Sequence record: NZ_AP023324.1
Reading direction: 5' to 3' (one strand)
Length of the DNA: 64,000 bases
From: a plasmid
The position numbers and the translations under genes are program-made. Shown here one piece after another: positions 6,549 through 62,869 of this stretch. Position 1 is the stretch's first letter, and each line of letters starts with the position of its first letter. The notes under the pieces are model-generated. The model ran no database searches. It worked only from the letters and a program-made list of their open reading frames with translations, and was not told the DNA's origin.

Positions 6549-6780
6549 AGCGGCGGGGATAGGGGTTGGTTCCCTCGGTGCCGTGCAGGAGCCAACAGTC
6601 CGACCTGTCAGAAGGAAAACATGTCGACATGTCTTCAAGTGGGTGAGGCGACAACCGGGGATGGCTCCCGTCTTGACGATAGCAGGCAGGGAGTGAGGCG
6701 CGTCCCAATGTTCGCTACACGCCTCCGTCCATGCCGGCGGCTTGAACCTTTATTTCAATCCCCGGGCCGTGCTCCGATGG

Positions 6781-7332
6781 TCAGCGCAGGATGATGTCGG
6801 CGCCATGTTTGTGCGCCCGGATTTCTTCCTCGGTCAGGCCATTGATCTCGTGTGGGAAGATGAGCCAGTCATTCGTCTCGTGGACGAAAAAGTCGGGCTT
6901 GAGATCGGTCACGTTGCGCGACGGCTTGTAATAGACGGTCGCGACCTTCACCTCGTCCGGCAGGTTGTTCCGGCACCGCTGTTTCAGTTCCTTCAGGAGG
7001 GCGCGGATCGACCGCCCGGAATCGAAGACATCGTCGATCAGGAGCAGGCGATCCTCGGGGTTGAGGACATCCACGAGATGGCCCAGGCCATAGATGCGGA
7101 CCTGCGGCTCCTGCTGGTCGATGCCCGTATAGGAGGCAGTACGGATCGCGATATGGTCGCTCTGGATGCCGCGATATTCGAGCAGCTCCTGAACCGCGAT
7201 GCCGACCGGCGCACCGCCGCGCCAGATGCCGACGATATGGGTCGGCCGAAAGCCGGAGTCGAAGACCAGATTGGCCAGGCGGAAGGAATCCTCCAGCAGG
7301 CGGTCGGCGGACAGATAGATTTTGGTGGTCAA
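6781..7332 (-). CDS. phosphoribosyltransferase-domain protein (purine PRT-like)
   Basis: 183 aa with a PRTase fold motif (RLLLIDDVFDSGRSI) and a purine-PRT-like N-terminus. Confidence 0.65.
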   Translation of the reverse strand: MTTKIYLSADRLLEDSFRLANLVFDSGFRPTHIVGIWRGGAPVGIAVQELLEYRGIQSDHIAIRTASYTGIDQQEPQVRIYGLGHLVDVLNPEDRLLLIDDVFDSGRSIRALLKELKQRCRNNLPDEVKVATVYYKPSRNVTDLKPDFFVHETNDWLIFPHEINGLTEEEIRAHKHGADIILR

Positions 7333-7612
7333 GGATCGTCAATCATTGTTGCGGAGCGGGGCACGAAGCCATCGGCCCCTGATAGGCGCTCCATTTTGGC
7401 GGGCTCCTGCGGGAAGAGCAACCATGGTGTGACCAGACGGAGCCATGGCGAGCGCGTGGGTCGGAAACGTAACGAGGGGCTGTGCCGAGAAAAGTGCCCC
7501 GTTATCGTCTCTTTGTTTCGTCATGCGCTACCAGCTAACGCGTACAATCGTGTCAAATAATCGACGTGTCGAATTGTCTACATGTCGATTAGTAGTAAGC
7601 TCTCCTTTCTGA

Positions 7613-8048
7613 TCATCGGGAAAGCGGCCTCGGGCAGGTCTCCGCCTCATGCTCGAAAGACAGCAGGATCGGGCATGGTCCTGCCGCCCCGTTTCCGCAT
7701 TCGCGGACCAGATGGTCGAGCGCGGCCCGCGCCTTTTGCAACCCCGCGATCTGCACATCCAGCGCCGCGATCCGTTCCTGCGCCAGATCGCGCACCCGCG
7801 CCCGATCATCGGTCGCATCCAGCGCCAGCAACGCGCCGATCTGCGCCAGTGTGAAGCCCGCCTGCTGCGCCGAGCGAATGAAGCGAAGCCGCCGCGCATC
7901 CTCCTCGCCATAACGCCGGATGCGGCCCGCCCTGCCCGGCCCGGGGACGCTCGGGCGTGGCAAGCAGGCCGCGCCGCTGATAATAGCGGATCGTCTCCAC
8001 CCCCACCCCGCCCTCACGCGCCAGCCCCGCGATCGTCCAGTCGGCCAT
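7613..8048 (-). CDS. MerR-family transcriptional regulator, metal-sensor type (frameshifted near 7930-7960)
   Basis: N-terminal HTH MADWTIAGLAREGGVGVETIRYYQRRGLL in one frame. The rest (RRYGEEDARRLRFIRSAQQAGFTLAQIGALL…C..C) is in another frame. Cys-containing C-terminus (CGNGAAGPC) as in CueR/ZntR/CadR. Confidence 0.6.
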
Positions 8049-8181
8049 GATGCCACTCCAACCTGCCAATGACCTTGTGCGGATAAATGCTAGAGAGTTT
8101 GTCAGCATATTATCGCTGGACGCCAAGCGCGGCGAGATAAGGGGCTGGATCACCGGCCCCGTGATCTAGCGCTTCATGGCC

Positions 8182-9206
8182 TCAATCAGCTTCTTGACGT
8201 CGGCTACGTCCACGTGGCAGGATCAGAATGTCTTCGCCGCTTGCTACCACGATCAGGTCCTGTACGCCGACCGCCGCAACACGTACGCCGTCAGTGCGGA
8301 TCAGGCAATTCGTGGTATCGATGGCCAGCACCTCGCCGCGATGGGCATTGCCGAAGCCGTCCAGCTCACTGATGGCGTGCAGGGCATCCCAGCTGCCGAC
8401 ATCGTTCCAGCCCATGGCGACAGGGACTACCGCAACACGGTCGGCACGTTCCATCACGGCATAATCGATCGAGTCTGACGGGCATGCGGCGAAGGCGGCC
8501 TCATCGGGGCAGATGCGCTTGCCGTCGTGCTTGGCTGTACGAACCGCCTCTTCGGCTGCGGCGAGCATTTCCGGCGCATGTCGGCCGAGCTCTTCCAGAT
8601 AACGATCGGCACGGAACAGGAAGATACCGCCGTTCCAAGCGTAGTCGCCCCGCGCGAGCATGGCTTCCGCCCGTTCCAGCTGAGGCTTTTCGACAAAGCG
8701 CGCGACCTGATGCACACCCTTGGCGATCTCGCGACCGACACGGATCCAGCCATAGCCTGTTTCGGGCTTGTCGGCCGCAATGCCAAAAGTGGCGAGCCAG
8801 CCTTGGGATACCATGGGCAGCGCTGCTCGAATGGCGCTGTGGAATGCATCGAGATTTTCGATGACGTGATCCGATGGCATGACGAGCAGCACATCCTCGG
8901 GCTGGGCGACAAGAGCCGCCAGCGCGATGGCGGGTGCGGTGTTGCGGGCAACCGGTTCGGGATCAGCGCACGGGGCGGGGTGCCTGCTTGGGTCAGCTGG
9001 CTTTCGACCAGATCAGTATGGCGTTGTCCCGCCACGACAATCGGGGCTGCAAAACCATCGGTGTTGGTCCGCTGCGCGGTCAATTGCAGCATCGTCTCGT
9101 CCGATGTCAGCGCTAGCAACTGCTTGGGCATTTCCGGCCGTGACATTGGCCATAAACGCGTGCCGGACCCGCCGGACAGGATTACCGGCACGATCAAATG
9201 GTTCAT
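8182..9206 (-). CDS. manC: mannose-1-phosphate guanylyltransferase, NTP-transferase domain (frameshift near 8895-8905 in a C run)
   Basis: N-terminus MNHLIVPVILSGGSGTRLWPMSRPEMPKQLL (G-x-G-T-R-L). The frame-corrected middle reads EPVARNTAPAIALAAL…LVMPSDHV. The C-terminal part matches ManC/XanB up to the end of the nucleotidyl-transferase domain. No cupin domain follows. Confidence 0.7.
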
Positions 9207-9526
9207 GAAGACTTCCTTGCGTCGTCGCGCCATTTGCAAAAATGGGCAATCAGTATCAGTGTTGAAGACGTCATGCGACGCCCGGTTCGCAGGCGCAACA
9301 AGAACGCAAATATCTATGCGTCGCGCTGCCCCAATCTTGCTCGCAGCGGGCATCTCCGCTGCGATAGAGAGTCTACATGTCGACGTATCGGATTGTCGGC
9401 ACTAATGGGACTGGCAAAATGGGACACCATTGACTCCGTACCATGGTACGTCCCCCATATGGGATGCGCACCCTCGATGGAGAAGGACGATGGCCAGCGC
9501 CGCCCCGGACCGCAACCCTGTACCGC

Positions 9527-10237
9527 ATGGTAATGGACACGCATGTCTGTCCCTATGGCCTGAAGGCCAGAGACCTACTGCGGCGCCAGGGCTATCGGAT
9601 CAAGGATCATGCCTTGCGCACCCGTGAGGAAACCGACGCCTTCAAGGCCGAGCATGGCGTGAAGACCACGCCGCAGGTCTTTATCGGGGGCGAGCGGGTG
9701 GGTGGCTATGACGATCTATGTCGCTTCTTCGGCAAGCGCGTCGCCGACCCCAAGGCCACGACCTATCGCCCGGTCGCGGCGCTGTTCGCCATGACCGCGC
9801 TGATGGCGCTGGCCGCGTCGCAGGCGGTCTATGCGACGCCCCTGACCCTCCGTGCTGTCGAATGGTTCGTCGCGTTCAGCATGGCGGTGCTGGCGCTGCT
9901 GAAGCTCCAGAATGTCGAGAGCTTTGCGACCATGTTCCTGAATTACGACCTGCTCGCCAAGCGTTGGGTCCCCTATTCCTATGTCTATCCCTTTGCCGAA
10001 GGGTTGGCCGGTGTCCTGATGCTCGCCGGCGTGGCGGTCTGGGCCTCGGTGCCGATCGCGCTGGTCATCGGTGGCATCGGCGCGGTGTCGGTCGTCAAGG
10101 CGGTCTATATCGACCGGCGCGAGCTTAAATGCGCCTGTGTCGGCGGATCGAGCAACGTGCCGTTGGGCTTCCTATCGCTGACCGAAAATCTGATGATGAT
10201 CGGCATGGCGCTATGGATGCTTATCCGACATGTATGA
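9527..10237 (+). CDS. glutaredoxin fused to MauE/DoxX-like membrane domain
   Basis: N-terminus has a CPYG redox motif and TPQVFIGGERVGGYDDL (glutaredoxin). C-terminal ~150 aa has four TM helices resembling methylamine-utilisation MauE. Confidence 0.6.
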   Translation: MVMDTHVCPYGLKARDLLRRQGYRIKDHALRTREETDAFKAEHGVKTTPQVFIGGERVGGYDDLCRFFGKRVADPKATTYRPVAALFAMTALMALAASQAVYATPLTLRAVEWFVAFSMAVLALLKLQNVESFATMFLNYDLLAKRWVPYSYVYPFAEGLAGVLMLAGVAVWASVPIALVIGGIGAVSVVKAVYIDRRELKCACVGGSSNVPLGFLSLTENLMMIGMALWMLIRHV

Positions 10238-10302
10238 TTGTCGACACGGGGACACGTAGACTTGTGAGAGGGTTATGGGGCTGCTAGCATCGGTGTCGTC
10301 CC

Positions 10303-11263
10303 ATGGCCCGGCTGTCCCCCCTCCCCTCGCCCACGCTGCAATTGCCCGCGATCGTTGCTGCGGCGGATGAGCGGGCGCAGAAGCATTTCCTCGAATTTTT
10401 CGTCGCCACCATCCGCAATGCCCATACCCGGCGCTCCTATGCGCGTGGCGTGTCCGACTTCCTCGCCTGGTGCGCCGAGCGCGGTGTCGTCGCCCTCCCC
10501 AGATCGAACCGATCCATGTCGCGGCTGGATCGAGGAACTGGGCCGCGAACTGTCGGTGCCGACGGTCAAGCAGCGACTGGCGGGGATACGGCATCTGTTC
10601 GACTGGCTGGTGCGCTGTCATGTCGTGCCGACCAATCCGGCGATCTCGGTACGCGGGCCGGCCTATAGCGTTCGGCGTGGCAAGACGCCGGTGCTCGATC
10701 CCATCGAGGCGCGCGAACTGCTCGACAGTATCGACGTGTCGACATGTATAGGGCTTCGTGATCGCGCATTGATCGGGTTGATGGTCTACAGCTTCGCGCG
10801 GGTCGGGGCGGCGCTGGCGTGCCGGGTCGAGGATGTGTTCGTCCAGAACCGCCGCCTTTGGGTGCGGCTGCACGAAAAGGGTGGCAAGCGGCATGAGATG
10901 CCGTGCCACCACAATCTCGACGAATATCTCCATGCCTATATCGACGGCTGCGGGCTGGCTGAGGATCGCAAGGGCTATCTGTTCCGTACCATCGCGCGCG
11001 GCACCGGCCGGCTGTCCCAGACCCCGCTGCCCCAAGCCAATGCCTATCAGATGGTCCGCCGGCGCGCGCTGGCGGCCGGGATCGGCACCGCGATCAACAA
11101 CCATTGTTTCCGTGCGACGGGGATCACCGCCTATCTGAAGAATGGCGGCACCCTCGAGCGCGCGGCCGCGATGGCCAACCATGCCTCCACCCGCACAACC
11201 CAGCTCTATGACCGGCGCTCGGATACGGTGACGCTGGACGAGGTAGAGCGGGTGATCATCTGA
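10303..11263 (+). CDS. tyrosine site-specific recombinase/integrase (frameshifted twice near 10490-10520)
   Basis: N-terminal SAM-like domain (HTRRSYARGVSDFLAWC). C-terminal catalytic domain carries R…HCFRATGITAYL…HASTRTTQLY (R-H-R-Y active-site residues). Confidence 0.75.
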
Positions 11264-11302
11264 CATGTCGGATTGTCGACATGTCGTCAGAAAGGGTGGG
11301 GC

Positions 11303-11779
11303 ATGGAGAATATCACGGCGAACCGACTGGCGGCCGGATCGGTGCTGCGCTTCGCCTATCTCGCGCACCTTGCGCTGGTCTTTCCAATCTGCCTGCTATT
11401 CGGGCTGATCGGCATGATGAGCGGCGGCACGGTCTATCATAACGGCCAGACGGTTCATGGCTTGCCGGCGCTGTTCATCGCGCTGGCGCTGGGGGCCATC
11501 CTTCCCTTGCTGCCGGCCTTGTGGTTCTGGCTGGGTGTCCTGGTCCTGCGGCTCTTGCGGGGCAGGGGGCGGCCTGAGCGTCCGGCAGGACTGAAGCCTC
11601 GCTCTACCGGGCCTTTCCTTCCGCTGGTCGCAGCCGGATGGCGCCCGGCGACCCCGTCGATAGAAGCACCGCGCGCCCGGCCCAATTCATACTCGAAAGC
11701 ACGAATTCAATCGTCCGCGAGGTGGTTTCCCCAAGGGGCAGGGCGCTGGCCCTCCCAAAGTTCGTGCTTTCGAGTATGA
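11303..11779 (+). CDS. hypothetical small membrane protein (3' part runs into iteron DNA and is probably not coding)
   Basis: MENITANRLAAGSVLRFAYLAHLALVFPICLLFGLIGMM… has two or three TM helices. The ORF tail translates the iteron repeat (NSYSKARI). Confidence 0.25.
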   Translation: MENITANRLAAGSVLRFAYLAHLALVFPICLLFGLIGMMSGGTVYHNGQTVHGLPALFIALALGAILPLLPALWFWLGVLVLRLLRGRGRPERPAGLKPRSTGPFLPLVAAGWRPATPSIEAPRARPNSYSKARIQSSARWFPQGAGRWPSQSSCFRV

Positions 11780-11781
11780 AA
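11676..11781. repeat. iteron-type repeats upstream of repA (one direct and one inverted copy of GAATTCATACTCGAAAGCACGAAT)
   Basis: AATTCATACTCGAAAGCACGAAT at ~11681-11703 and its reverse complement at ~11757-11780. The same ~22-24-bp unit occurs four more times downstream of repA. Confidence 0.8.
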
Positions 11782-11787
11782 TCCAAC

Positions 11788-12737: not shown

Positions 12738-12752
12738 TTCGCGGGGCGCGAC

Positions 12753-12905
12753 CCAATTCATACTTGATAGCACGAATTATCGGCGTGAATTCATACTCGA
12801 AAGCACGAATGCTTCGCCGAATTCCTATCCGATAGCACGAATGACGCGCCCGAATTTTGTAATTCGGGCGGTGTTTTTGAATTCATACTCGAAAGCACGA
12901 ATCGT
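12753..12905. repeat. iteron array downstream of repA (four copies/variants of GAATTCATACTCGAAAGCACGAAT)
   Basis: Copies at ~12753-12776 (variant AATTCATACTTGATAGCACGAAT), ~12786-12808, ~12818-12842 (variant) and ~12881-12904. Confidence 0.8.
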
Positions 12906-13374
12906 CACGGCTTACTTTGTTGGAGATTTACTGCAAGGTTAACCCATATCGCGGGTCGAGACCTGTGAAGGCAGCATATGGGAGCGGTCGTGACCACATA
13001 AAGGAAAGCCCGGCACGAAGGCCGGGCATCCAGTACTACAGGAGCGACGTCGCCAAACGTCGATCCGGGGCATCACACACCCCCTCCTGATACGCCTGTC
13101 GCCCCTGCGGTTCAAGGATGCGCGCTTCGCGCCACGCCCTTTCTCGTCCTTTTTTGGTCCGGCCCCGGAAATAAGGGGAAGGAAGATGACGGCGTTCACC
13201 TTTGGTGAAGCGACGACGCGCGCTTGCGCAGGCCGCGGCCACGCGATCGGGGACATCCGTGCGCGTAGGCCATCGCACCGGCGCGCGTGTCCGCCGTGAC
13301 AGCATCGAGGCGGGGACGTTCGAGGACATGTTCTTCGCCACGCCGGCCAAGGGGAGTGTGACCGGCTGATCCGC

Positions 13375-14034: not shown

Positions 14035-14246
14035 AACGCCCACCGCAAACGACATAACTAGGGGAAATGACGGGAAGCGCCGGCTTCGCCGACGCCATGC
14101 TCCCTAGAAGGAGCAAGCGGATCCGTCAGCCTGTCTTTCGGCCTGTTTGGTGATGTGGAGGAGGAGAGTGGAAATAAGCCTGATCCGGCCATCATGTGCC
14201 GTTTCCTACTCGACACGTCGGCCTGTCGACATGTAGTCTATATGAC

Positions 14247-14897
14247 ATGCCGACAATCGCGATCATCAGCCAAAAGGGCGGTGCGGGAAAAACGACCTTG
14301 GCCATCCATCTTGCCGCCGCAGGACAGGAAGTGGGACAGGTGTCGCTCATCATCGACACCGATCCCAGGGCGACCGCCAGCCAATGGGCGTCGGCGCGAG
14401 GACGCGCCCCCCGAAGTCATCGACAGCCCACCTCCACGCCTCGCCGCCAAGGTCGAACAGGCCAGGGGGCAGGGGGCCAAGCTGATCGTCATCGACACGC
14501 CGCCCCATGCCGATAGCGCCGCCCGCGCCGCAGTCGAGGCGGCCGACTGGTACTGATCCCCTGCCGTCCGAGCGCCTTCGACCTCTCGGCGATCCAGACG
14601 ACCGCCAAACTGGTCCAGCTGCTGCGCAAACCAGCCTTCGTCGTGTTCACCGCCGGCAACCCCAACGCGCCGCGCGTCTATGCCGAGGCGGGCGAACTGG
14701 TCGAAAGCTATGGCACCCCGCCATGCCCCGTCCTGATCCCCGACCGGGCCGCGTACCGCCACGCCTCGGCGGAGGGGCGCACCGTCATGGAAACCGAACC
14801 GGCGGGCAAGGCGGCCGAAGAAATTCGTGAACTCTACAAGTGGACATGTCGACAACTAGACCTGCCCGTCGCTCGTTTTAAGAAGGTCCCTGCATGA
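14247..14897 (+). CDS. parA: ParA-family partition ATPase (two frameshifts)
   Basis: MPTIAIISQKGGAGKTTLAIHLAAA (deviant Walker A) …LIVIDTPPHAD…VLIPCRPSAFDL…VFTAGNPNAPR. The pieces lie in three frames. Confidence 0.75.
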
Positions 14898-15168
14898 GCC
14901 GCAAACCCAGCTTCGCCAATCTGCGCGATCGTACCGCGCCAGTCGCGGCGCAAGCCCATCAAACTCCGTTACTAATAGCGATGATGGAAGAGCCAGTCGT
15001 CCTGCTAGTCGAGAGGGCCGCAAACAGATCGCTGGCTTCTTCACGCCTGAAATGTCTTTAGCAATGCATATGATGGCACGACGGCAGGGGCGAAGCCTTC
15101 AGGCGCTAATGGCAGAGGCGTTTGACGATGTGCTGCGCAAATATGGGGAAAGCCCGGTGGGGGGATGA
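14894..15168 (+). CDS. ribbon-helix-helix partition/centromere-binding protein (ParG/CopG-like), one frameshift
   Basis: ATG overlaps the parA stop (ATGA). MSRKPSFANLRDRTAP… then, in the +2 frame, …KQIAGFFTPEMSLAMHMMARRQGRSLQALMAEAFDDVLRKYGE, an RHH-type fold. Not in the supplied ORF track because of the frameshift. Confidence 0.5.
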
Positions 15169-15190
15169 GACTGTGCCTTTTGAGACAGGC

Positions 15191-16243
15191 TAGAGCAGAT
15201 TCCGATCAGTATGCATCGTATCCGGCAGCGGCGAAGTAGTTGGCGCATTCGGCGGGCGTGAAGGTGTCGATGGCGGCACCTATGGCGCGGGACAGATCGT
15301 CGACGGTTTGTGCAGCGGCTTTGCGCAGGAGTGCTTTCAGCTTGGCGAAGGCGTTTTCGATCGGATTGAAGTCGGGCGAGTAAGGCGGAAGGAAGAGCAG
15401 CCGGCGCCCCTTGCCTCGACCGCCTCCCGCGCCGCGACGCTTTTGTGGGCGGGCAGGTTGTCCAGGATCACAACGTCGCCCCGTTTCAGCGTTGGAGCGA
15501 GTACCCGGGCAACCAGGCCTCGAACCACGCCCCGGTCATCGGTCCGTCGATGACGAGCGGTGCGGTCATGCCCGAGAGCCGCAAGCCACCGACGAACGTG
15601 GTCGTCATCCAGTGTCCGTGCGGTACAGCCATGCGCAGCCGTTCGCCACGTGGAGCGCGTCCATAGCGGCGTGCCATCTTCGTACTGGCACCCGTCTCAT
15701 CGACGAAGACCAGCGTTTCCGGATCGAGGTCGAGCTGGCCATCGAACTAGGCCTCGCGCGCGCTCAGGACGTCGGGGCGGTCCTGTTCCTGCGCGTGGCC
15801 AGTCTTTTTTTGCGCGTATGCCCGTGACGGGCGAAGAAGCGCCACAGCGTCGATACCGCGACCGCGATCCCCTCGGCGGCCAGGCCCTCGCGCAGCTCGG
15901 CAAGAGTGATGTCGGGAGCCGCCTCGCACAGCGCCCAGATGCGCGCCGCCTTGGCCTCGGTCGTGGCCGAGCGCGTGTCACCGTCCTGCGGCTTGGCCGC
16001 TGGCTTTCCCTGATCGCGCTGAAGGGCCACCCACCTCACGGCACTGGCTGCGCTGACCCCGAACCGTGCGCGGCCGCCCGGCGTGACATGCCTCCCGAAA
16101 TGGCACCAACAACCCGCTCGCGCAGGTCCATCGATAACGGCTTGCCCATCTGACCGGCCTCCCCTCGCCGGGGACGAGCATGAATCAGACTTCACTCCCT
16201 TTGGGAATCCCTCAACGATTCACACTGATCGGATTTTGCTCTA
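15191..16243 (-). mobile_element. IS630-family insertion sequence (~1.05 kb) with ~20-bp terminal inverted repeats and TA ends
   Basis: Left end TAGAGCAGATTCCGATCAGT (15191-15210). Right end ACTGATCGGATTTTGCTCTA (16224-16243), i.e. 18/20 inverted identity. Both ends begin/end with TA, the IS630 target dinucleotide. The internal gene encodes an IS630 transposase. Confidence 0.8.
15208..16195 (-). CDS. IS630-family transposase (OrfA HTH part plus DDE OrfB part; frameshifts, one possibly programmed)
   Basis: N-terminus …RFGVSAASAVRWVALQRDQGKPAAKPQDGDTRS…DITLAELREGLAAEGIAVAVSTLWRFF. C-terminal pieces VILDNLPAHKS and …YSPDFNPIENAFAKLKALLRKAAAQTVDDL are the conserved IS630 DDE-domain motifs. Confidence 0.75.
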
Positions 16244-16389
16244 ACCTATCAGCGGCCTGAAAATGGGGAGCACGTCAACCTGCTATGACTACCGCATAAT
16301 CCATTTCACTGCCTTTGCCTATTTCACCGCTCTCGCAATCTATCTACATCGAATGGTGATTGACTTTAAATCAAGTCTTACTACCTCAA

Positions 16390-17579
16390 TCAGGTCGTAG
16401 CAATCGCATACCGAGGAAGTTCACTTTGATTATTAACAATAACTTCAGCGCGGGCAACTTCATATGCAAAATTACGCAGAAAATGACCTCGAGCAAAACG
16501 CTGTGCATTAGTGATCGCAGCCTCTGGGTCAAAGCTTGGGAGCCAAGTATCAAAGCGATTTAGTGCGTCGATCAGCGATTCTGCGGTCTGTTCATAAAAG
16601 TGAATGCCTGTCACGCCATCGATCACTGTTTCCGTGCCGCCTCCGCGGCCGAAGACGACGACCGGACGACCAGCTGCCTGAGACTCGACCGGAATGATGC
16701 CGAAGTCTTCTTCGGCAGTGAAAATCAGTGCGGAGGCTCGAGCATAGGCAGCCCGTAGGTCGTCGAAGCGCATCCGCGTGGTAAAGCGCACGTTTGGACC
16801 AGCTCGTGCCTTCAGCATTTTTAACATTGGGCCATCGCCGATGACGTGCAGTTTGCGGCCGGTTCAGTGAAGGCATCAACTGCTATATCAGGGCGCTTAT
16901 AGGGAACGAGTTGGCTGATCCAGACGCACTCGTCGCTGACATCGTCCGTTCGTTGGAACAGGTCGACATCGACTGGCGGATAGACGACGCTGGCATCACG
17001 CCCCCAGAATTTGCCGATGCGACGCCGGACAAACTGGCTATTGGCAATGATGAGGTCGGGTCGTGAGGCGCTTGAGCGGTCCCAGGCACGCATACGCGGC
17101 GCAATCAATTTCAAGTACAGCCCGGCCAGACGCCCGCTGGCAGCTCGATAGGCATGATACTGATCCCACAGATACCGCATAGGCGAATGGCAATAAGTGA
17201 CGTGAATCGCGTCGGGTCGGGTGATCACGCCTTTAGCCGGGCCAGCCTCACAGCTAATGACCAAGTCGTAGGCGCTGAGGTCGAGCGCCTCAAGCGCACC
17301 AGGCATTAGTGGGAGGTATTTCTGATATTGTCTCCGGGCGAAGGGTAGCTTGGCAATCGCTGTCGTAAAGATACGGTGTCGCTTAATAGTCTGCGACAAG
17401 GCGGAATGATCGACAACATGGGTGAAAATGTCGGCATCCGGGTACAAGTCACAGATTCGCTCCAGTACGCGTTCACCACCGCGCATTACCACCAGCCAGT
17501 AATGGATGATGGCGACCTTGCGAGGCCTGACTGGAGCAGGAGCAGGGACGTCAGGCATCGGGGGCAGGGCGGAGGTCAT
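16390..17579 (-). CDS. glycosyltransferase family 1 (GT4-like), frameshift near 16830-16860
   Basis: C-terminus has the GT1 motif (…FTAEEDFGIIPVESQAAGRPVVVFGRGGGTETVIDGVTG). The N-terminal half (ORF 16821..17579) is the GT-B N-domain. Lower GC than the flanks. Confidence 0.65.
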
Positions 17580-17648
17580 TTATGGATATCCTGTCGAAAT
17601 GAAAGCGGTAGCGGCGTCAGGAAAAGGGCGAGCTACGATCTGATAGTA

Positions 17649-18661
17649 TTACAGGCGGGGCGGCGTTTCCTGCTGGTCTAGCAGGGTCGCCTGCGCCACC
17701 CATCGCCGTCCACCTTGCCCAAGCGCGAGGCCGAAGGCCGGCAACAGGCCGAGCTGTTTCATGACGAGATAGGCTATAACCGGCGCGCCCATGCCGATCG
17801 CCGTGCACAGGACGAGATACAGCCAACTGATGGGCGGCACGTGCAAGATTTTCATCAAAATGATTCGCGCACCAGCGCCGGCAAGAATATGCATGACGTA
17901 GATTGCCATCGACATGGTACCGATCGCCACCAGCGCGGCCACATGTTCCAGCCGCTGCGAAATCCATAGCATCACCACGATCCCACCGATAGCGGCAGGC
18001 AGCATGAGTACGGAGTTGTAGTTGCTGAAGCCATGATGATGGGCGACGGCGATGGCGGCGGCGCCCAGCAGCGTTAAGCCCGCCGCAACCCCGCCACCTA
18101 TGCGTAGCAGGTCACGCAGCTTCGGACGACCCATCGCCATTCCCGCAACGAAGAAGATCGGAAAATGTAGTAATTGATGGCCAAAATTGTCTTTCGGTAG
18201 CCATTCTCCGATCAGGAAGGCAGCCAAGGCGGGACGAAGAATAGCGGCAGTGGCAGGACGCTGGCCAGCATCATGAACAGGAATAGCGCATATAAGAACC
18301 AGAAAGGTGAAATAGGTGCCCAGGCGATGTAAAGCATTTGACGGGGGTCAAAGGCATTGTTGGTGACATGGCTGAGTACGGTCATGATGGTGCCCGACAA
18401 TAGAGACCAGAGCACATAGGGATACAGCACGGAGGCGATTTTGCTGCGTCGAAAATAGGTCATCCCTTTGCCAAGGCTGTTTGGCACGTTGAGACCGGCC
18501 AAAAACATGAACAGTGGCATATGGAATGTGTACAGCGCGAAATCGAATAACTGCCAGCGGACATCCCGAAGCGTCCCCGCCGACACCAACCCACGCTCCA
18601 TGTGGCCGAGCACGACCAGGAATATTCCTATACCCTTCGAGGCATCCTGGGGGCACCTCAA
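17649..18661 (-). CDS. acyltransferase family 3 membrane protein (OatA/OafA-like O-acyltransferase), frameshift near 18215
   Basis: …GIGIFLVVLGHMERG…FHMPLFMFLAGL… plus ~8 further TM helices in the second fragment, consistent with Pfam Acyl_transf_3. Confidence 0.6.
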
Positions 18662-18795
18662 GGTTTGTCATATGGACAGCGGCAGTCGGAACAAATGGTC
18701 AACAAAAGCCTGAGCGTTGCCGCAAAGTATATTAAGTTTCGTGGGTTTGTGAGGTTGGACGAGTTGGAAGTTACCGGATCACCTCTCGTGATGTT

Positions 18796-19619
18796 TCACC
18801 CGCGGAGCTCGTAGTAGACGATCTGCCATCCATTCTTGGGACCGCGCCACTGGGTGATCTGAAAGCTATGGGCTTGTGCAGACCCGTCGAGGACGCGGCT
18901 ACTCCACCGTAGCGTTTCATCGTAACTGCTTCCGGACGATAACGCACCCGCTATGCGCCGAATGGGCAGCTTGGCGGGGAGCCTGCGGATGCGTCGGCCA
19001 TCGTTGCCGACAAAGATAACGTCTTCGGCCACGCTTCGTCTTGGAACAGCCAACCAGTCGACCTGTTTGCCGGCCTGCTCCTGTCGCAAAACAGACGCGA
19101 TCTCTTTCGCATCGCTAACGGCTTGGATTTGGAGCTGTTCATTGGTGAGTTTTGCCGAGCACTCAGGTTCGATCGCTTGTAAACTTTCTGCCGCTAATGC
19201 CTTCGATCCATCCCGACGATAGTCGTCGATTTCCAGCGCCACCCCTCAGCACTGTTCCGCCAAAGCGTCTTATATGATCCAACTCGATTTCCGCCATCGT
19301 ACAGCCCGCCGATAACAACTGCCGACCCGCTCGGATCACAGGACGGAAAGACAAGTTCGGGTCTGCGCTCGGCATGGCTCTCGACACTCATCATTGTGAG
19401 CCACCACCTTCGGCTACTCTCGGCTGCTTGCAACATGCTGGCCACAGATGGAGAGCGCGCGGTTTCGGGCGCATGTTGTATTGGCCAGGGGTCGCTTTGT
19501 GGACCGAAACTGCGTGCCGCTGCCTGACGGCCACTGGCAAGTACAGCTTCCGAGTAGGCCCGCTCCGCCTCCAGCGCGGAATTCGGCGAACTTGCCGCTA
19601 GTAGAAGCGCGAAGATCAT
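18796..19619 (-). CDS. secreted hypothetical protein (signal peptide MIFALLLAASSPNSALEA), two ORF fragments
   Basis: ORFs 19194..19619 and 18796..19242 overlap in different frames. No recognisable domain. Confidence 0.35.
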
Positions 19620-19639
19620 GGCGAAATCCTACTCCTCAA

Positions 19640-20219
19640 TCAACGTGTCGAGCGATGTACGGGCATCTGCGCCGGATGGTTGAGCGCCCGATAGAGCGTG
19701 GCATGATGACACTTCAGCAGCTTCGCCGCTTCGCGCACCGATGTGCCTTCGCCGACGAGACGCTGTCCGAGCGCGATCTGGTCCGGAGTGAGCTTGGGCT
19801 TACGCCCGAACTTCACGCCGCGCGCCATGGCTGCCGCGCGGCCGGAACTGGTACGCTGGTGGATCAGCTCGCGCTCGAACTCCGCGATGCCGGCGAACAC
19901 GGTGAGCACCATGCGTCCCGCAGGCGTGGTCGTGTCGGCCCGGGCTCGGCGAGCGAGCGCAGCCCGCTCCCGCCTCGTTCAGCTTCTCGGCGATGTCGAG
20001 CAGGTCGCGCGTCGACCGCGCTAGGCGATCGAGCCGGGTGACCACAACCACGTCGTCGTCGCGCAGCTGCTCCAGCATCCGGTCGAGTTCCGGTCGGGCG
20101 CGCTTGGCGCCGGACACCTTCTCCTCGAATGTCCGCCGGCATCCGGCCGCCTTCAGTGCCGTCTTTTGAAGCGTGAGATCCTGATCGTCGGTAGATACGC
20201 GCGCATAGCCGAGGAGCAT
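19640..20219 (-). CDS. tnpR: serine recombinase/resolvase (Tn3-family TnpR-like), frameshift near 19915
   Basis: MLLGYARVSTDDQDLTLQ…VVTRLDRLARSTRDLL…FAGIAEFERELI…C-terminal HTH (TSVREAAKLLKCHHATLYRAL). Confidence 0.75.
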
Positions 20220-20289
20220 GTCGCAGATGTGCATTGGAACACGGCTGATTAGCAACAGACATTTGCGACAGCGTCCGCCCTCGTGGCGT

Positions 20290-20343
20290 GACCGGTTGTA
20301 AACGCTCGCGCTAAGTGGCGGCATTCTGATCGCGCTATTTGTC
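20290..20343. repeat. left terminal inverted repeat of nested Tn552-like element
   Basis: 52/54 identical to the reverse complement of 23317-23370. Confidence 0.8.
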
Positions 20344-20923
20344 GGCGAGCGTCGCTACGCGGCTACCGGCTTGGTCTCGGCCGATCGCACATAGGCGTAG
20401 AGTGTTGGCTTGGAGATGCCGAGCATCGAGCAAATCTTGGCGATCGGCATCGTGTTCTCGTGGTAGAGCCTGACGGCGGTCGCGCTTGTCCTTGCCGAGT
20501 GCGGCCGGCCGGCCACCCTTCTTGCCGCGAGCGCGGGCTGCGGTGAGACCGGCACGGGTCCGCTCGCGGATCAGGTTGCGCTCGAACTCCGCCAATGCCC
20601 CGAACAGGTGGAAGGTAAGCTTGCCCGACGTGGTGGTCGTGTCGATCGCCTCGTGCAGGCTCAGCAGCCCGACCTTTTCCTCGTCGAGGTAGGTCATCCA
20701 TCCGATCAGATCACGGAGCGAGCGGCCGAGCCTGTCGAGGCGCCAGACCACCAGTGTGTCGCCGGCGCGAAGCAGCTCCTTCACCTTTTCCAATCCAGGG
20801 CGAGCGGCAGTCGCCCCGGAGGCCTTGTCGGTGATGACCTTCTCGCAGCCGGCAGCCTTCAGCGCATCACGCTGGAGGTCCGGTTCTGCTCGGCGGTCGA
20901 TACGCGGGCGTAACCGATTTTCA
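20335..20923 (-). CDS. serine recombinase/resolvase of the nested element (TniR/BinL-like), frameshifted
   Basis: MKIGYARVSTAEQ…LQRDALKAAGCEKV…VVWRLDRLGRSLRDL…FGALAEFERNLI. C-terminal HTH fragment (…LYHENTMPIAKICSMLGISKPTLYAYVR) in ORF 20355..20555. Confidence 0.7.
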
Positions 20924-21036
20924 TGCGTAGGGCCGGTGGCGCCCGATCGGGCGCGGTTTGGGAAGAAAGTCGTCATCGGCAGGTCTATGTTGCCCTAGTT
21001 TTCTTTACCGGGTAGATTTACGTCGAACAGGCCGGT

Positions 21037-22510
21037 TTGGCAACGCGAGCGGACTCGCATGGCGATGGGCAGGCAAATCTCCGTTTTCCTTACCTGCGAC
21101 ACGGACCGTCGGCGGTGACGCATCCGGCGCTTGTCCCGCCGCTGGCGATCGAGCGCTACCGCGTCCTTGAACCGCACCTCGCCGATGGCATCCCGCTCGC
21201 GGACCTCGCCCGCACCGGCACGCTGAGCGAGCGGACGTTGCAGCGCTGGCTCGGGCGCTACCGTGCCGAAGGACTTGCCGGTCTCGCGCGTCTGCCGCGC
21301 AACGATCGGGGCAGGCTGCACCTGCCGGAACATCTGGTCGAACTGACCCGCACTCTCGCCACCAAGCGCCCGCGACCCCCGGTCGCCGCCATTCACCGAA
21401 AGGTGCAGGAACTCGCCATCGCGCATGGACACCGAACCCCCAGCTATGCGGCCGTCGCGCGTGTCGTCAGGGCGATACCGGCAAGCCAGATCGCCGCAGC
21501 CTCCGATCCGGCCGTCTACCGCGACCAGCACGAGCTAGTGCATCGGCGCGAAGCCGCGACCTCGAACGAGATGTGGCAGGCCGATCATACCGTTCTCGAC
21601 ATTCTCGTGCTCGATGATGCCGGAACCCCGGTGCGTCCTTGGCTGACCGTCATCGTTGACGATCACAGCCGAGCCATCGCCGGTTACTTCCTCAGCCTCG
21701 ATGCCCCCAGTGCCCTCAACACGGCGCTCGCCTTGCGGCAGGCGATCTGGCGCAAGCCCAATCCCGAATGGATCGTCAGCGGCATTCCCGAACAGCTTTA
21801 CGTCGACAACGGCTCGGATTTCATCTCCGAGCATATCGAGCAGGCGTGCATCGCCCTCAAAATCCGCCTCATCCATTCGCTGCCGGGGCGTCCTCGCGGG
21901 CGCGGCAAGATCGAGCGGCTGTTCCGCACCATCAACGACATGTTCCTGCCCGACCTGCCCGGCCACCTGATCGCGGGCAAGCCGCTGTCGGCGCCAGTGC
22001 TCACGCTCGACGAGCTGCGCGCCCGCTTCGAGGCGTTCGTGTGCGGCGTCTATCATCGTCGCCCGCATGGCAGCACCGGCGAACCGCCGATCACGCGCTG
22101 GCAGAAGGGCGGGTTCCTGCCCGCAATGCCCGACAGCCTTGAACAGCTCGACATGCTGCTCGTGCACGTGCCCAAGCCCCGTAAAGTGCTGCGCGACGGC
22201 ATCCGTCTGATGGGCAGGCGCTATGTCGAACCCACGCTCGCGGCCTTCGTCGGCGAGCAGGTCGAGGCGGTCTATGACCCCGCGACCTGACCGAGATCCA
22301 CGTCTACCACCAGGGGCCGGTTCGTCTGCCGTGCGCTCAGCTCCGAGCACGCTGGGCACCCGTCGTTGCGCGCGATCCAGCGCGCCCGGCGCGGCGCGAA
22401 GGAGCGCGACAAGCAGGTGCCTGCCCCCACGGAGACCTTCGATGGCGACCAAGAGGATACGGCTTCCCGGCCCACCACCTACCGAGGGCTCCGGCTCTAC
22501 GCCGCTGACG
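21037..22510 (+). CDS. tniA: TniA/Tn552-p480-like DDE transposase (Mu-type integrase core), frameshift at ~22290
   Basis: N-terminal HTH domains (GTLSERTLQRWLGRYRAEG). Integrase core (MWQADHTVLDILVLD…VIVDDHSRAIAGYF…YVDNGSDFIS) contains the D,D,E residues. The C-terminal tail continues in another frame (DLTEIHVYHQGRFVCRA…). Confidence 0.7.
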
Positions 22511-23318
22511 ATTGAGTTCCTGGTCGAGCAGCCGTTCACGGCGACCCGCGAACATGCCCGGTTCGTCGAGTTTGCCGAAGCCTGCGCGCACTACCGCTAT
22601 ATCGGCGTGTGTCATGGCCGGCCGGGCGTCGGAAAGACGCGATCGGCGCGCGAGTTTTCCAGCTTCCCCGACCGGGGAATATGCCGCGCTCCGTCCCATT
22701 GCCGCGCTCCTTGGCGAAAAGGTCGCTCGCTGCCGCGCCGTCTTCTACACCGTGTCGGTCAGCAACACGCCCAAGACGATCGACGCGGTGTTGGGCCTCA
22801 ACCTCATTAAGCTGGGCTATGCCCGGCTGACGGTCGCGGGCGGCTCGCAGGACGAAATCACCCATGACGCCGCCCGCATCGCCTGCCCCCTCGTCATCGT
22901 CGACGAGGCCGACCGCCTGACCATAAAGTCGCTCGAACATCTCCGCGACATGGCCGATCGCCACGGCTTCGGGCTGATCCTGATGGGTATGCCGGGCTTG
23001 GAGAAGCGCCTCGCCCGCTATGCCCAGCTCTACTCGCGGATCGGCTTCGTCCACGAGTTCAAACCGCTTACCGAGACCGAAATGCGGCTGCTGCTCGCGA
23101 CCCACGCCGGCGATTTCGGGATCAGCTTCGACCCGGCCCAACTCGACGCGATCGAAGCGCAGGCAGCCGTGATCCGCATCACGCGCGGCAACTTCCGGCT
23201 CATGGAGCGCCTGTTCGCGCAGATGCGGCGGATCATGACCCTCAACCGCGTCGAGGAGGTCACCGCTGACATCGTTCAGGCCGCGCGCGATTGCCTCGTC
23301 ATCGGACCCGGCAACTGA
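22442..23318 (+). CDS. tniB: TniB/Tn552-p271-like AAA+ ATP-binding transposition protein, frameshift near 22670
   Basis: …YIGVCHGRPGVGKTRSAREF (Walker A) …LVIVDEADRLTIKSLEHLRD (Walker B/DEAD-like) …GLILMGMPGLEKRL. About 270 aa. Confidence 0.7.
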
Positions 23319-23370
23319 CAAATAGCGCGATCAGAACGCCGCCATTTAGCGCGAGCGTTTACAACCGGTC
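23317..23370. repeat. right terminal inverted repeat of nested Tn552-like element
   Basis: Reverse complement of 20290-20343 with two mismatches. Confidence 0.8.
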
Positions 23371-23455
23371 AGGGCCGCTGTCACGAAACTTGAGAGTTAC
23401 GCGACACCTCGCACGTGTCGGCCATAAACTATACGCTCCCGGACAGGGGTGATCG

Positions 23456-26414: not shown

Positions 26415-26439
26415 GCCGCCCTGTTCGCTACCTGTTCAG

Positions 26440-26477
26440 CTTACCGCTGTCCGTGTCACAAACCTTGAGGTGCTCCC
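26440..26477. repeat. 38-bp Tn3-family terminal inverted repeat (IR-R)
   Basis: Reverse complement is GGGAGCACCTCAAGGTTTGTGACACGGACAGCGGTAAG, with GGG at positions 1-3 and TAAG at 35-38 as in Tn3/Tn21 IRs. Located 26 bp after the tnpA stop. Confidence 0.75.
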
Positions 26478-26699
26478 ATCCTGCCATATGTAGCGGGCCG
26501 ACGATCGGCTGAGTTTGTTGGTTGCTGTTTCGTATACCTGCGGTGAGGTTGTTGGCCACCTCTGCGGCGAGGGGGCTGGTTCGTCAATCATCTAGAAATC
26601 TTTCTGACATTCGCACGATGCTAGCCCGGCTTTGATGCGGGGGATAGACGAAGGCCAGTCTGCCCGCCCATTCCTGATGATAGCGTGTCACCCGCAGGC

Positions 26700-27760: not shown

Positions 27761-27979
27761 CATAGCGTTGCACGCCGCTCAACGTCTGGGTCAGGAAACG
27801 GCCGTTAATATAGATGGTGCGCCCGGTCGTCATCCCGTCCCCTGTGCATTGAAAGCTGGCGATATACCCGTCCGCATACCTTGGCGATGCCGCTCACCGC
27901 CGCATAGTCCGGTGGTGCGGCGGGTCAACCCATCAGGATTCCGTGCGCACCCGTAGCAGGGCCACGCACGCGGACGTAA

Positions 27980-29397: not shown

Positions 29398-29442
29398 GCC
29401 GGATGACGAAGATCGTGCGGAAAATGATCCAGATATCGCGGT

Positions 29443-30770: not shown

Positions 30771-30993
30771 ATTTCATAATCGGCAAGGATGCGCTGGTGT
30801 TGCGGGCGAAAGATGACGTCCGGGCAAGATGAATGTGAAGTTTCACCACATGGTCCGGGAAAGGCAGTGCTGTCTACGCCCCGGATCTCGGTATCTGTCG
30901 CGGCGTATGACAAAACGACAATGCTAATGGCCTGCTGGGCAGAATTTGGCAAGCGATATGCAGACATGAATGGGGCCGGGCCCGTCGATCGTT

Positions 30994-32199: not shown

Positions 32200-32203
32200 C
32201 GCG

Positions 32204-38346: not shown

Positions 38347-38357
38347 GGCCGGATTTG

Positions 38358-44386: not shown

Positions 44387-45095
44387 TCACGCCACTATGA
44401 AAGACAATAGTATACAATCTTGATACTATGTAGACATGTCGATCAATCGACAGGTCTACGGAAAAAAAGCCTTGATCGTCAGGGATTTCGGCACTTGCGT
44501 CCTTCCCAGTATCCCCGTTCAGCACCCAGCGATCACCCTCGCGCGTGGCGGCCTGCTCGGCGCTATGCACCTCGTCCAGCTGGCGGGTGAGGAAGGGGAA
44601 GGCGGCACGGATGTCGGCGCGCTGGGTCCAGGCGGGGGGCTGGACGATGCGATAGTCGTAACGCAGCACCTCGCCCTTGACCGCCGGACCGGTCGCGGCG
44701 CCGACATCGCGGGCCTCGGGGCGGACCGCGACCACCTGTTTGCGGCCGTAGCAGAGCAGAGGCTCGGCCGGGCTGCCGGGGTCCAAGCGACGCAGCCACA
44801 GATCGCGCTTGCCCGCTTCGGTCGGCTCGATCCGGACGCGCGGACGATCGCCGGTGTCGGGCAAGGCCACGCGGCGGACCAGTCCGGCCGCGACCAGCGC
44901 GTCGACCTTGGGGCCGCTCAGCGCATCGGCGCTGAATTCGATCGGCCATGTACCCGACAGCAGCGGTGCGCATTGCCGCTGCCCCTCCACCTGCGCGCGG
45001 ATCTGGGCAAGCGCCTCGCCGCTGGGCTGGGGCTGGCTCGCACCTTCGCTGCACGCGGCGAGCAGCGCCAGCCCGGCGACCAGCGCGCGGGTCAC
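44355..45095 (-). CDS. hypothetical lipoprotein (MTRALVAGLALLAACSEG)
   Basis: Lipobox LAAC|S, 246-aa ORF. The last ~35 codons are AT-rich and may lie beyond the true stop. Confidence 0.4.
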   Translation of the reverse strand: MTRALVAGLALLAACSEGASQPQPSGEALAQIRAQVEGQRQCAPLLSGTWPIEFSADALSGPKVDALVAAGLVRRVALPDTGDRPRVRIEPTEAGKRDLWLRRLDPGSPAEPLLCYGRKQVVAVRPEARDVGAATGPAVKGEVLRYDYRIVQPPAWTQRADIRAAFPFLTRQLDEVHSAEQAATREGDRWVLNGDTGKDASAEIPDDQGFFSVDLSIDRHVYIVSRLYTIVFHSGVIAISCRYDNP

Positions 45096-60981: not shown

Positions 60982-61008
60982 GTCAGCACTCCCGATCGGC
61001 TGTTCACA

Positions 61009-61031
61009 CGATATACGTTTTTCGTATATCG
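61009..61031. promoter_or_regulatory. perfect palindrome CGATATACG-TTTTT-CGTATATCG in divergent promoter region; candidate XRE operator
   Basis: 9-bp arms, 5-bp AT spacer. 28 bp upstream of the minus-strand gene start (60981) and ~37 bp upstream of the XRE GTG start (61068). Confidence 0.5.
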
Positions 61032-61067
61032 CTCAAGCCGGTCTAGACACTTCGGGGTGCCCATCTC

Positions 61068-61305
61068 CCATGCCCCATCTGACCTGCACGCCCGCATCGT
61101 TGCTGCGCTGACCGTGGCGCGGCGGGGCGCCGGGCTTCGTCAGGTCGACCTCGCGAAACGGCTCGGATGGCAGCAGGCTTATGTATCGCGCTACGAGACC
61201 GGCGAGCGTCAGTTGAGCGTCGACGATTATATCGCAGTTTCCTTGGCGATCGGGGTTGATCCGGTGGCATTGCTCGGCGAGCTTCTCTCCGAAAGCCGGT
61301 CGTGA
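61068..61305 (+). CDS. XRE-family HTH transcriptional regulator (short, GTG start)
   Basis: …LHARIVAALTVARRGAGLRQVDLAKRLGWQQAYVSRYETGERQLSVDDYIAVSLAIGVDPVALLGELL is a Cro/C1-type HTH. Confidence 0.6.
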
Positions 61306-61555
61306 TCTCTGTGTAGGCCGCTTGTCGATGCGATGTGCGGGCGGCTTGAACATATCCCGCCATCGTTTGGTAAACCAACAAACGCCTTCACTATGGCGGC
61401 GCGACGTTGCGGCTCTGGAGCAGGCAAGATAGGTGTTGTACCGGTACACGCGTTAGCGCGTCCCGGTACAACACGGTCCTTACTTGTCTCCGGCTCGACA
61501 GTATCTTCGCTCTGCGAGGCGGACGGCCGCTGCCCCCATGGGGAGCAGAAGGCGG

Positions 61556-62720
61556 TCAATCCGAGCCAAAAATGTCCCGCGTGAACAGCTTGTCCGCGAC
61601 ATCGGCCAGTTCGGGGTCGTTGCGGTTGGCGATGATGACGTCGCTTTCCTGCTTAAAGGCAGCGATGTCGCGATAGACCTTCGAGCCGAAGAAGCTGTCC
61701 TCGCCAGGCTGGGCTCGAAGACGACGACCTCGATCCCCTTGGCCTTGATCCGCTTCATGATGCCCTGGATCGAGGACTGGCGAAAATTGTCCGATCCCGC
61801 CTTCATCGTCAGGCGGAAGATGCCGACCTTTCTGGGGCGCTTGGCGATGATCTGGTCGGCCAGGAAATCCTTGCGGGTGCGGTTGGCGTCGACGATCGCG
61901 CGGATCAGGTTCTGGGGGACGTTGGTGTAGTTGGCGAGCAGCTGCTTGGTGTCCTTGGGCAGGCAATAGCCGCCATAGCCGAAGCTTGGATTGTTATAAT
62001 GGCTGCCGATACGCGGATCGAGGCCGACGCCCTCGATGATCTGGCGCGTGTCCATGTCGCCGGCGATGGCATAGCTGTCGAGTTCGTTGAAGAAGGCGAC
62101 GCGCATCGCGAGATAGGTGTTGGCGAACAGCTTGATCGCCTCGGCCTCGCGGCTGCCGGTGAACAGGACCGGGATGTCGGTCTTCTCGGCGCCTGGGCGA
62201 GCAGGTCGGCGAAGATGCGCGCGCGCTCCGACTGTTCGCCGACGATGATCCGTGAGGGATGGAGATTGTCGTGCAGCGCGCGGCCCTCGCGCAGGAATTC
62301 GGGGCTGAAGACGACCTGTTGCGTGCCCAGCCGCGCCCGGACATCGTCGATAAAGCCGACCGGGATGGTCGATTTGACGACCACGGTGGCGTCCGGCGCA
62401 TGGGTCTTGGCGAGGGTGATGACCGCCTCGACCGAGGCGGTGTTGAAGCTGTTGGTGTCGATGTCATAATTGGTCGGCGTCGCGACGATGACGTAATCGG
62501 CGCCGGCCAGCGCCGCAGCCGCGTCGGTCGTGGCGGACAGGTTCAGCGTGCGGCCGGTCAGGAAATCCTGCAGTTCGGCATCGATGATCGGCGAGGTCCG
62601 GGCATTGACCATCGTCACCCGCTCGGCCGAGATGTCGACCGCGACGACTTCGTTATGCTGCGCCAGCAAGACGGCGTTCGACAGGCCGACATAGCCAGTG
62701 CCAAAAACGGCAATCTTCAT
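61556..62720 (-). CDS. ugd: UDP-glucose 6-dehydrogenase, two or three frameshifts
   Basis: [20 protein letters not shown] (NAD-binding GxGxxG) …VVKSTIPVG… …GGYCLPKDT (catalytic Cys motif) … C-terminal UDP-binding domain. Confidence 0.8.
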
Positions 62721-62869
62721 TCGTCACATCCCACCAGTCAGGCGTGTCGGCCTTGTGCGGTCCGCATGCCTCAATGGGGGGCGCAGGGCAATTGCGGCTG
62801 CACCGGGACAGAGGGCCGGCATGCCATGCCCCTGTCCCGTTTCGTCACATTGTCGACCTGTCGACAGTC

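Follow-up and report, generated by a model that had tools for sequence, protein, structure and literature searches.

The 64,000-nucleotide stretch of plasmid DNA analysed here (sequence record NZ_AP023324.1; hereafter the window) carries ten arrays of a short repeat, TGTCGACA, numbered A1 to A10 along its length. We consider that these arrays are most probably the cognate sites, centromere and operators together, of the plasmid's own ribbon-helix-helix (RHH) protein, whose partner is a type Ib ParA. The two proteins are encoded by adjoining genes on the plus strand, parA at 14247–14897 and the RHH gene at 14894–15168. The arrays have a defined anatomy, they keep their position beside homologous parA–RHH operons, their unit changes together with the RHH protein, and they are absent from unlinked DNA.

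A sequence-only reading of the window had picked out by eye at least ten occurrences of a palindromic motif and a partner sequence, and the motif is indeed present at all ten places, far above chance in both shuffled and Markov-model sequence. The exact octamer TGTCGACA occurs 10 times in the window, with 0.74 expected (maximum 4) from dinucleotide shuffles and 2.2 expected under a third-order Markov model, and the 14-mer ACATGTCGACATGT, allowing two mismatches, occurs 6 times with 0.07 expected. Although the sites are real, the form first given to them, a 14-bp palindrome with a partner, is better replaced by tandem 8-bp units: each of the ten sites is a run of 3–6 contiguous degenerate units, arranged head-to-tail and in register. 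A template of three units, (TGTCGACA)x3, at a threshold of 17 or more matches in 24, finds 21 positions vs 0.27 in shuffles, and a template of four, (TGTCGACA)x4, at 22 or more in 32, finds 17 vs none. The distances from GACA to GACA and from TGTC to TGTC have maxima at 8, 16, and 24 bp (z of about 9, 6, and 3 for GACA). The consensus from 46 units is T (59%) G (74%) T (80%) C (72%) G (72%) A (74%) C (74%) A (57%), an 8-bp sequence of twofold symmetry for which GACATGTC is an equally valid reading frame. The supposed partner, GATTGTCG, is not enriched on its own, with 9 copies on both strands of the window and about 3–6 expected; it arises where a variant unit, TGTCGGAT, meets the unit that follows. 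Isolated exact copies of TGTCGACA are found at 33149, 36726, and 47570, a number within chance expectation.

In intact relatives, ParA is a small Walker ATPase of 217 amino acids without an N-terminal helix-turn-helix (HTH) domain. It scores 206 bits, above the cut-off of 180, against the NCBIfam equivalog NF041546 (ParA_partition), and its Pfam matches are AAA_31/CbiA. In the window, as in most of the homologues that were examined, the RHH start and the parA stop overlap, while in two distant homologues (A. pomorum and Methylococcus) there is a gap of 27–63 nt. The RHH protein has 91 amino acids and belongs to Pfam PF20605, ‘antitoxin-like ribbon-helix-helix’ (E = 7.8e-22); this was the sole Pfam match at E ≤ 0.1, the ParG family not being matched, and the NCBIfam models gave none. 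When 24 homologues are aligned, the N terminus proves to be an invariant basic peptide, MSRKPSFANLR, which is followed by a variable linker rich in Ala and Pro and then by an invariant RHH domain. The AlphaFold2 model of the monomer places two C-terminal helices at residues 52–84, with the linker at low confidence. Within the ParA–RHH pair, the RHH protein is the only one with a predicted sequence-specific DNA-binding fold. With at least 1,197 sequence clusters, the family is common across Alphaproteobacteria and extends to Gammaproteobacteria and Cyanobacteria. A second PF20605 paralogue adjoins the parA–RHH pair in Sphingomonas NBWT7 (locus L020, 2734–2985), and another, in Nostoc (locus L014, 4878–5156), is solitary and has its own upstream 8-bp repeats.

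A tblastn search of PLSDB with the RHH protein returned 113–137 plasmids, 11 of which, all Sphingomonas-type, encode a protein of at least 60% identity. Arrays of TGTCGACA lie upstream of parA in every one of these close relatives that was examined, each of which has further arrays elsewhere, and an array in the 3′ end of parA was seen in all of them but Sphingomonas sp. NY01, where nothing rose above threshold. A scan based on the RHH alignment, with one genome taken per species, gave 80 loci, nearly all from Sphingomonas and mostly on contigs of 20–300 kb. These loci, 1.45 Mb in total, hold 431 arrays vs 11 in second-order Markov simulations; the density is 3.0 arrays per 10 kb, and that of the window is 1.6 per 10 kb. 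An array is found within 200 bp upstream of parA at 77 of the 80 loci, at the 3′ end of parA, before the RHH gene, at all 80, and just after the RHH gene at 17. The locus of S. desiccabilis (L071, 9309–15323), with its parA–RHH pair and arrays, is on a 1.76-Mb contig, perhaps a chromid, a plasmid that has integrated, or a misassembly.

More distant homologues also have arrays of 8-bp period both upstream of parA and within its 3′ end, and most have one directly after the RHH gene as well. The unit of these arrays changes with the β-strand of the RHH protein, and seven groups can be distinguished. The Sphingomonas group, to which the window belongs, has the β-strand GRKQIAGFF and the unit TGTCGACA. 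For G. oxydans pGOX3, Komagataeibacter pKNA09, and three sphingomonad plasmids, the pair is GKKAMTGYF and TG(C/T)AAACA; for Acetobacter pomorum, GKRAVVGYF and TGxTAACA; for Nostoc, GKKAIAGHF and ACTTGTAA; for Sphingomonas sp. NBWT7, GKKAVSAYF and GTGAAC/GTTCAC; for pPDL2 and a Caulobacter plasmid, GTKLIGGHF and GTATAC; and for Methylococcus, GKKAVTGFF and TTCATGA. When the units were scanned across the groups, they proved to be specific. An ACA/TG junction is kept in several groups (TGTCGACA, TGCAAACA, and TGxTAACA), with CATG in the Methylococcus unit, which suggests that the dyad of the dimer lies there, on GACA/TGTC. Small plasmids have essentially the three core arrays only, and the dispersed extra arrays are a trait of the larger Sphingomonas plasmids. 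The sequence-only reading had proposed that the ParA/RHH pair has its centromere or operator in the array that precedes parA, and this is supported both by the shared positions at the 80 homologous loci and by the co-variation of the unit with the β-strand.

The same comparison bears on other candidates for the protein that reads the arrays. If they were iterons or origin repeats bound by RepA, which is of the RPA family, one would expect them near repA, and six of the ten arrays in the window are within about 5 kb of that gene; furthermore, an array is found no more than 600 bp upstream of repA at 33 of the 54 loci that include this gene (61%). However, plasmid pSZ.B2R2_2 has its repA 15 kb from parA, and there seven of the eight arrays are within about 2.5 kb of parA–RHH and none is near repA. 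Plasmid pPDL2 and the Caulobacter plasmid have unrelated Rep proteins (RPA and Rep3, respectively; BLASTP E = 2.6), yet their RHH proteins are 70% identical and both carry GTATAC arrays. Contiguous 8-bp units are, moreover, unlike iterons, which are direct repeats of about 17–23 bp beside rep that vary in sequence with the Rep protein, and a separate family of typical iterons, about 23 bp long with the core AATTCATACTCGAAAGCACGAAT, flanks repA in the window. Since the unit tracks the RHH protein across unrelated Reps and repA has an iteron family of its own, we reject RepA as the binder, and that reading now seems scarcely credible. The repeats with the AATTCATACTCGAAAGCACGAAT core form a perfect 20-nt inverted pair just upstream of repA (11684–11706 and 11761–11783) and four direct copies immediately downstream of it (12752–12916, at spacings of 33, 32, and 60 bp). 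These repeats probably constitute the operator of RepA and the iteron origin.

Another plasmid protein might read the arrays instead, such as the HTH_36 protein encoded beside repA, a MerR-family or Xre-family protein, or the tyrosine recombinase. Several of these candidate genes are indeed found among the arrays, and A4–A6 bracket the recombinase gene, but the recombinase is present at 3 of the 80 loci and HTH_36 at 56, and at no locus is there an array upstream of the HTH_36 gene, while the arrays at parA are kept at 77–80. Plasmids of the other specificity groups do not have these genes and nevertheless retain arrays, and a tandem 8-bp geometry suits an RHH protein rather than HTH dimers or recombinase core sites. 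The recombinase and HTH_36 are rejected as binders on co-occurrence, and we regard a binder of this kind as quite unlikely. Thus, the arrays follow the ParA–RHH pair, as the unit is shared across unrelated Reps, arrays can be remote from repA, and the recombinase is rare. That the RHH protein rather than ParA is the binder is argued from its fold, from the co-variation of the β-strand, and from precedent.

The unit contains GTCGAC and the arrays contain CATG, and the sequence-only reading had pointed to methylation data for this reason. An enrichment that reflected a restriction-modification target, or the composition and codon usage of GC-rich DNA, would draw on the fact that GTCGAC (Val-Asp) is a common hexamer, with 43 copies in the window. 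This is about the number expected, however, so that it is only the in-register multi-unit arrays that are enriched and not GTCGAC itself, and units lacking those sites are used in homologous systems. The arrays are also mostly intergenic. In the window, eight of the ten are intergenic, one is within the recombinase gene, and one is in the coding sequence of parA, at its 3′ end. Of 48 arrays in annotated relatives, about 36 are intergenic, and the parA 3′ array makes up 7 of the 12 coding ones. At the 80 loci, with the parA 3′ array excluded, predicted coding DNA holds about 20% of arrays vs 57% of random positions, figures that are approximate because the coding mask is a crude one, based on GC3, that under-calls genes (57% coverage). 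With GTCGAC at expectation and the arrays mainly outside coding DNA, the methylation or codon explanation is rejected, and we give it virtually no chance of being correct.

We suggest the following mechanism for the RHH protein, by analogy with ParG of TP228, ω of pSM19035, and MetJ. One RHH dimer would bind each unit, with its two-stranded β-sheet in the major groove, and neighbouring dimers, 8 bp apart, would bind cooperatively and coat the array. The N-terminal peptide MSRKPSFANLR, on its disordered linker, would touch ParA and stimulate its ATPase, and the coated arrays would act as the plasmid centromere. Array A7, lying over the start of parA and probably over its promoter, would give autorepression as well. 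Extra loading sites, operators, or both would be provided by the arrays that precede repA and several cargo genes, and the RHH protein would then be a plasmid-wide regulator in the manner of ω.

A7, the putative parA operator and centromere, has six units at 14208–14255 (ACTCGACA CGTCGGCC TGTCGACA TGTAGTCT ATATGACA TGCCGACA), and it ends on the parA start codon (ATG, 14247–14249), the last unit, TGCCGACA, being 14248–14255. Across 75 distinct sequences upstream of parA, the array extends from about −55 to +8, counted from the ATG, and two of its units regularly differ from the consensus, TGTTGCCA at −39 and TGTAGGGG at −15. These are plausible −35-like and −10-like elements, and binding of the RHH protein to the array would then occlude the parA promoter, even though a strict σ70 scan was empty. 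In the 120 nt upstream of parA at loci L024–L103, there is no room for a Shine–Dalgarno sequence before the ATG. A promoter embedded in the array is suggested, and the parA mRNA is possibly leaderless or has a very short leader. The second core array, A8, has four units at 14831–14862, in the parA 3′ coding end and 32–63 bp upstream of the RHH start, and it encodes the C-terminal tail of ParA (...LYKWTCRQL...). The sequence coding for this tail varies along with the repeat unit in the other specificity groups, so a constraint from the cis site appears to shape the end of ParA.

The organisation resembles that of the TP228 ParF/ParG–parH–OF system, in that the gene for a small Walker ParA precedes that for a small RHH protein, whose N-terminal tail is flexible in TP228 and predicted to be so here, and that short degenerate boxes, repeated every 8 bp (in TP228, ACTC with a 4-bp spacer), form arrays upstream of the operon. 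In TP228, this array is both the centromere and the autoregulatory operator, and one ParG dimer binds each of the ACTC boxes, which are 8 bp apart in both elements (PMC3130281). However, the RHH protein of the window matches PF20605 only and has no sequence relationship to ParG, and its unit is a GC-containing 8-bp palindrome without AT-rich spacers. Also unlike TP228, there is a conserved array in the parA 3′ coding end, and many extra arrays are spread over tens of kb. The δ/ω system of pSM19035 is similar in another respect, since its RHH ParB, ω, binds contiguous short repeats of mixed orientation in several separate arrays. One ω dimer binds each 7-bp repeat, at least four contiguous repeats are needed to activate ParA, and the arrays, which serve as the centromeres too, overlap three promoters that drive partition and copy-control genes, so that partition is coupled with replication control (PMC9499535). 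The ω repeats are non-palindromic heptads, WATCACW, present at 7–10 per array on a Firmicute plasmid, whereas the units here are the 8-bp TGTCGACA, present at 3–7 per array, and they are also found at polysaccharide and ubiB cargo genes and in intergenic DNA without a promoter.

Beyond plasmid partition, RHH dimers of MetJ are reportedly bound to tandem, contiguous, palindromic 8-bp metboxes (AGACGTCT), with 2–5 units per array and a cooperativity that is said to tolerate degenerate copies. MetJ differs from the RHH protein here in being a chromosomal, SAM-dependent metabolic repressor without a known ParA partner, and the two have no sequence similarity. In pB171 par2, centromere repeats, of 6 bp, lie on both sides of the par operon (parC1 and parC2). 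Scattered sites of partition proteins that double as transcriptional operators are familiar from the OB sites of RK2 KorB and from the centromeres of the phage-plasmid N15, and KorB and N15 SopB are HTH ParB proteins (type Ia). To our knowledge, none of these three has an 8-bp palindromic unit or an array inside parA. The element described here is most probably a new, previously uncharacterised example of the type Ib RHH–centromere class, a familiar kind of plasmid-maintenance element, and its variant features are the palindromic 8-bp unit without spacers, the array inside parA, and the dispersal over the plasmid.

Several observations weigh against our assignment of the arrays to the RHH protein. 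ParA and the RHH protein always occur together, so co-occurrence cannot tell them apart. Sequence and profile searches of the PDB found no relatives of the RHH protein, the AlphaFold2 model has a mean pLDDT of 63.5, which is weak structural support, and a Foldseek search with this model returned mainly RHH proteins (CdbA, CopA antitoxin, Arc, and CopG) at E > 1, which is not significant. Several arrays have only 3–4 recognisable units, and ω requires at least four contiguous repeats for the activation of ParA. A σ70 consensus scan around the arrays detected no promoter at any of them, a result that is uninformative, and in relatives some of the dispersed arrays are within genes or in the gaps between convergent ones. 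Literature searches found no description of the motif or of this parA–RHH family in sphingomonads, and no experiment on binding, stability, or expression in the family. Finally, both genes are broken in the window, parA by small indels relative to two related plasmids and the RHH gene by one 1-bp deletion (WP_082052576.1 is an intact copy of the protein), and if these frameshifts are real the proteins would be defective.

The indels are more likely to be sequencing or assembly errors than signs of pseudogenisation, because they are found along the entire window, about one for every 210 bp in comparison with two related S. paucimobilis plasmid sequences, and break many genes. The frames affected include, besides parA and the RHH gene, ugd (61559–62720), manC (8169–9206), and GH43 (42818–44368). 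The window is collinear, at 88–98% identity, with the 76.5-kb plasmid unnamed2 of Sphingomonas paucimobilis FDAARGOS_908, apart from one gap of about 8 kb (window positions of about 18650–26476) and a short overlap near 50 kb; a 75-kb contig of S. paucimobilis NBRC 13935 is a further match. Relative to the closest plasmid relative, insertions, deletions, and rearrangement of insertion sequences (IS) and cargo are seen at 15189–18649 and 26477–38446, just downstream of the RHH gene; the relative has galU and IS5/IS630 there, and the window has different DNA.

The window is therefore plasmid throughout, and the ‘chromosomal copies’ of the motif that the sequence-only reading had described do not exist. 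That reading had taken them as a sign of a host regulator site or an interspersed repeat family, and the occurrence of arrays upstream of cargo genes unlinked to plasmid maintenance (ubiB, manC, GH43, and ugd) is what would be expected of the sites of a host-encoded global regulator. As controls, we used an 880-kb replicon of S. parapaucimobilis, which is effectively chromosomal as it carries def, fmt, smpB, nuo, and gap, and pNP2-R2 of S. sanguinis. Both have orthologues of the ugd, TonB, and GH43 cargo genes at about 81% identity, and neither is among the records with 60% or greater identity to this RHH protein. No array is present in the ugd, TonB, or GH43 regions of either replicon, including the regions upstream of ugd and GH43. 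The cargo regions and two 50-kb samples together, 133 kb of unlinked Sphingomonas DNA, gave one borderline match, inside a gene, which corresponds to 0.075 arrays per 10 kb, the simulated chance rate; the match falls in the 100 kb from the S. parapaucimobilis replicon that carries the housekeeping genes, for which one is likewise the chance rate. When the flanks of the ten window arrays were compared, they shared no sequence, so the arrays are not a mobile repeat. On the plasmid synteny, the array-free orthologous promoters, and the 133-kb control, we reject both a host regulon and an interspersed repeat, either of which is very improbable. The first interpretation was half right, then, correct for the centromere or operator and incorrect for a chromosomal regulon.

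The other eight arrays were placed with gene positions obtained by tblastn of annotated proteins. A1 (6606–6637) has four units, TGTCAGAA GGAAAACA TGTCGACA TGTCTTCA, in the intergenic region between a phosphoribosyltransferase gene and a ubiB-like gene (minus strand, start 6539), 67–98 bp upstream of the latter. The five units of A2 (7551–7590) are between the stop of a MerR-family gene (about 7613) and the start of the phosphoribosyltransferase gene (7332), both on the minus strand, and the four of A3 (9370–9401) are between the divergent manC (minus strand, start 9206) and MauE–DoxX (plus strand) genes. A4 (10223–10262, five units) overlaps the MauE stop and is 41 bp upstream of the tyrosine recombinase start (10303); A5 (10721–10752), with 3–4 units and one 1-bp register shift, is within the recombinase gene. 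The units of A6 (11258–11289) are ATCTGACA TGTCGGAT TGTCGACA TGTCGTCA, and this array overlaps the recombinase stop, 14 bp upstream of an open reading frame of 97 amino acids (11303) and about 500 bp upstream of repA. Far from the operon, A9 (44421–44460, five units) is 53 bp upstream of the GH43 glycosylhydrolase gene (minus strand, start 44368) and abuts the stop of the preceding hypothetical gene, and A10 (62843–62874, four units) is 123 bp upstream of ugd (minus strand, start 62720) and overlaps the stop codon of a phytase gene.

Dispersed arrays are equally a feature of the 80 homologous loci, where about 250 arrays, or about 3 per 20-kb locus, are more than 1 kb from the operon. Those upstream of repA and cargo genes fit a global repressor like ω or KorB. 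Since others lie between convergent genes or inside genes, repression is not the function of all of them; the ones between convergent genes, of which that between galU and rfbA in S. taxi STP1 is an example, fit extra loading sites of a distributed centromere. Exopolysaccharide or O-antigen gene clusters are present on nearly all examined plasmids of the Sphingomonas group. In several unrelated plasmids of this group, arrays are upstream of rfbB or adjoin it, at its 3′ end, in the rfbB–rfbD gap, or beside the stop codon (L003, 10056–10087; L005, 16485–16524; L018, 14698–14832; L019, 164–195), which hints at a recurrent link of the arrays with dTDP-rhamnose and polysaccharide operons. We propose tentatively, and with more doubt than confidence, that the partition RHH protein on the large Sphingomonas polysaccharide plasmids is a plasmid-wide regulator with a distributed centromere. 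It would couple segregation with the expression of the replication initiator and of cargo genes (ugd, manC, rfb, GH43, and ubiB) through 5–13 dispersed 8-bp arrays, one of them inside the sequence coding for the C terminus of ParA.

In annotation, the motif marks a plasmid backbone and not a chromosomal regulon. What is the function of this RHH family, which Pfam labels ‘antitoxin-like’ and which is annotated as ‘ribbon-helix-helix domain-containing’? We propose that its members are centromere-binding proteins with a defined DNA code. The seven or more natural pairs of protein and site specificity can be used to study how an RHH β-strand reads DNA, and they could help predict which plasmids of sphingomonads and acetic acid bacteria are incompatible. 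The presence of dispersed arrays beside repA and polysaccharide genes suggests that cargo expression and copy control may be tied to partition. If the RHH protein does act across the plasmid, this would be a global circuit like those of ω and KorB in an uncharacterised family of RHH proteins.

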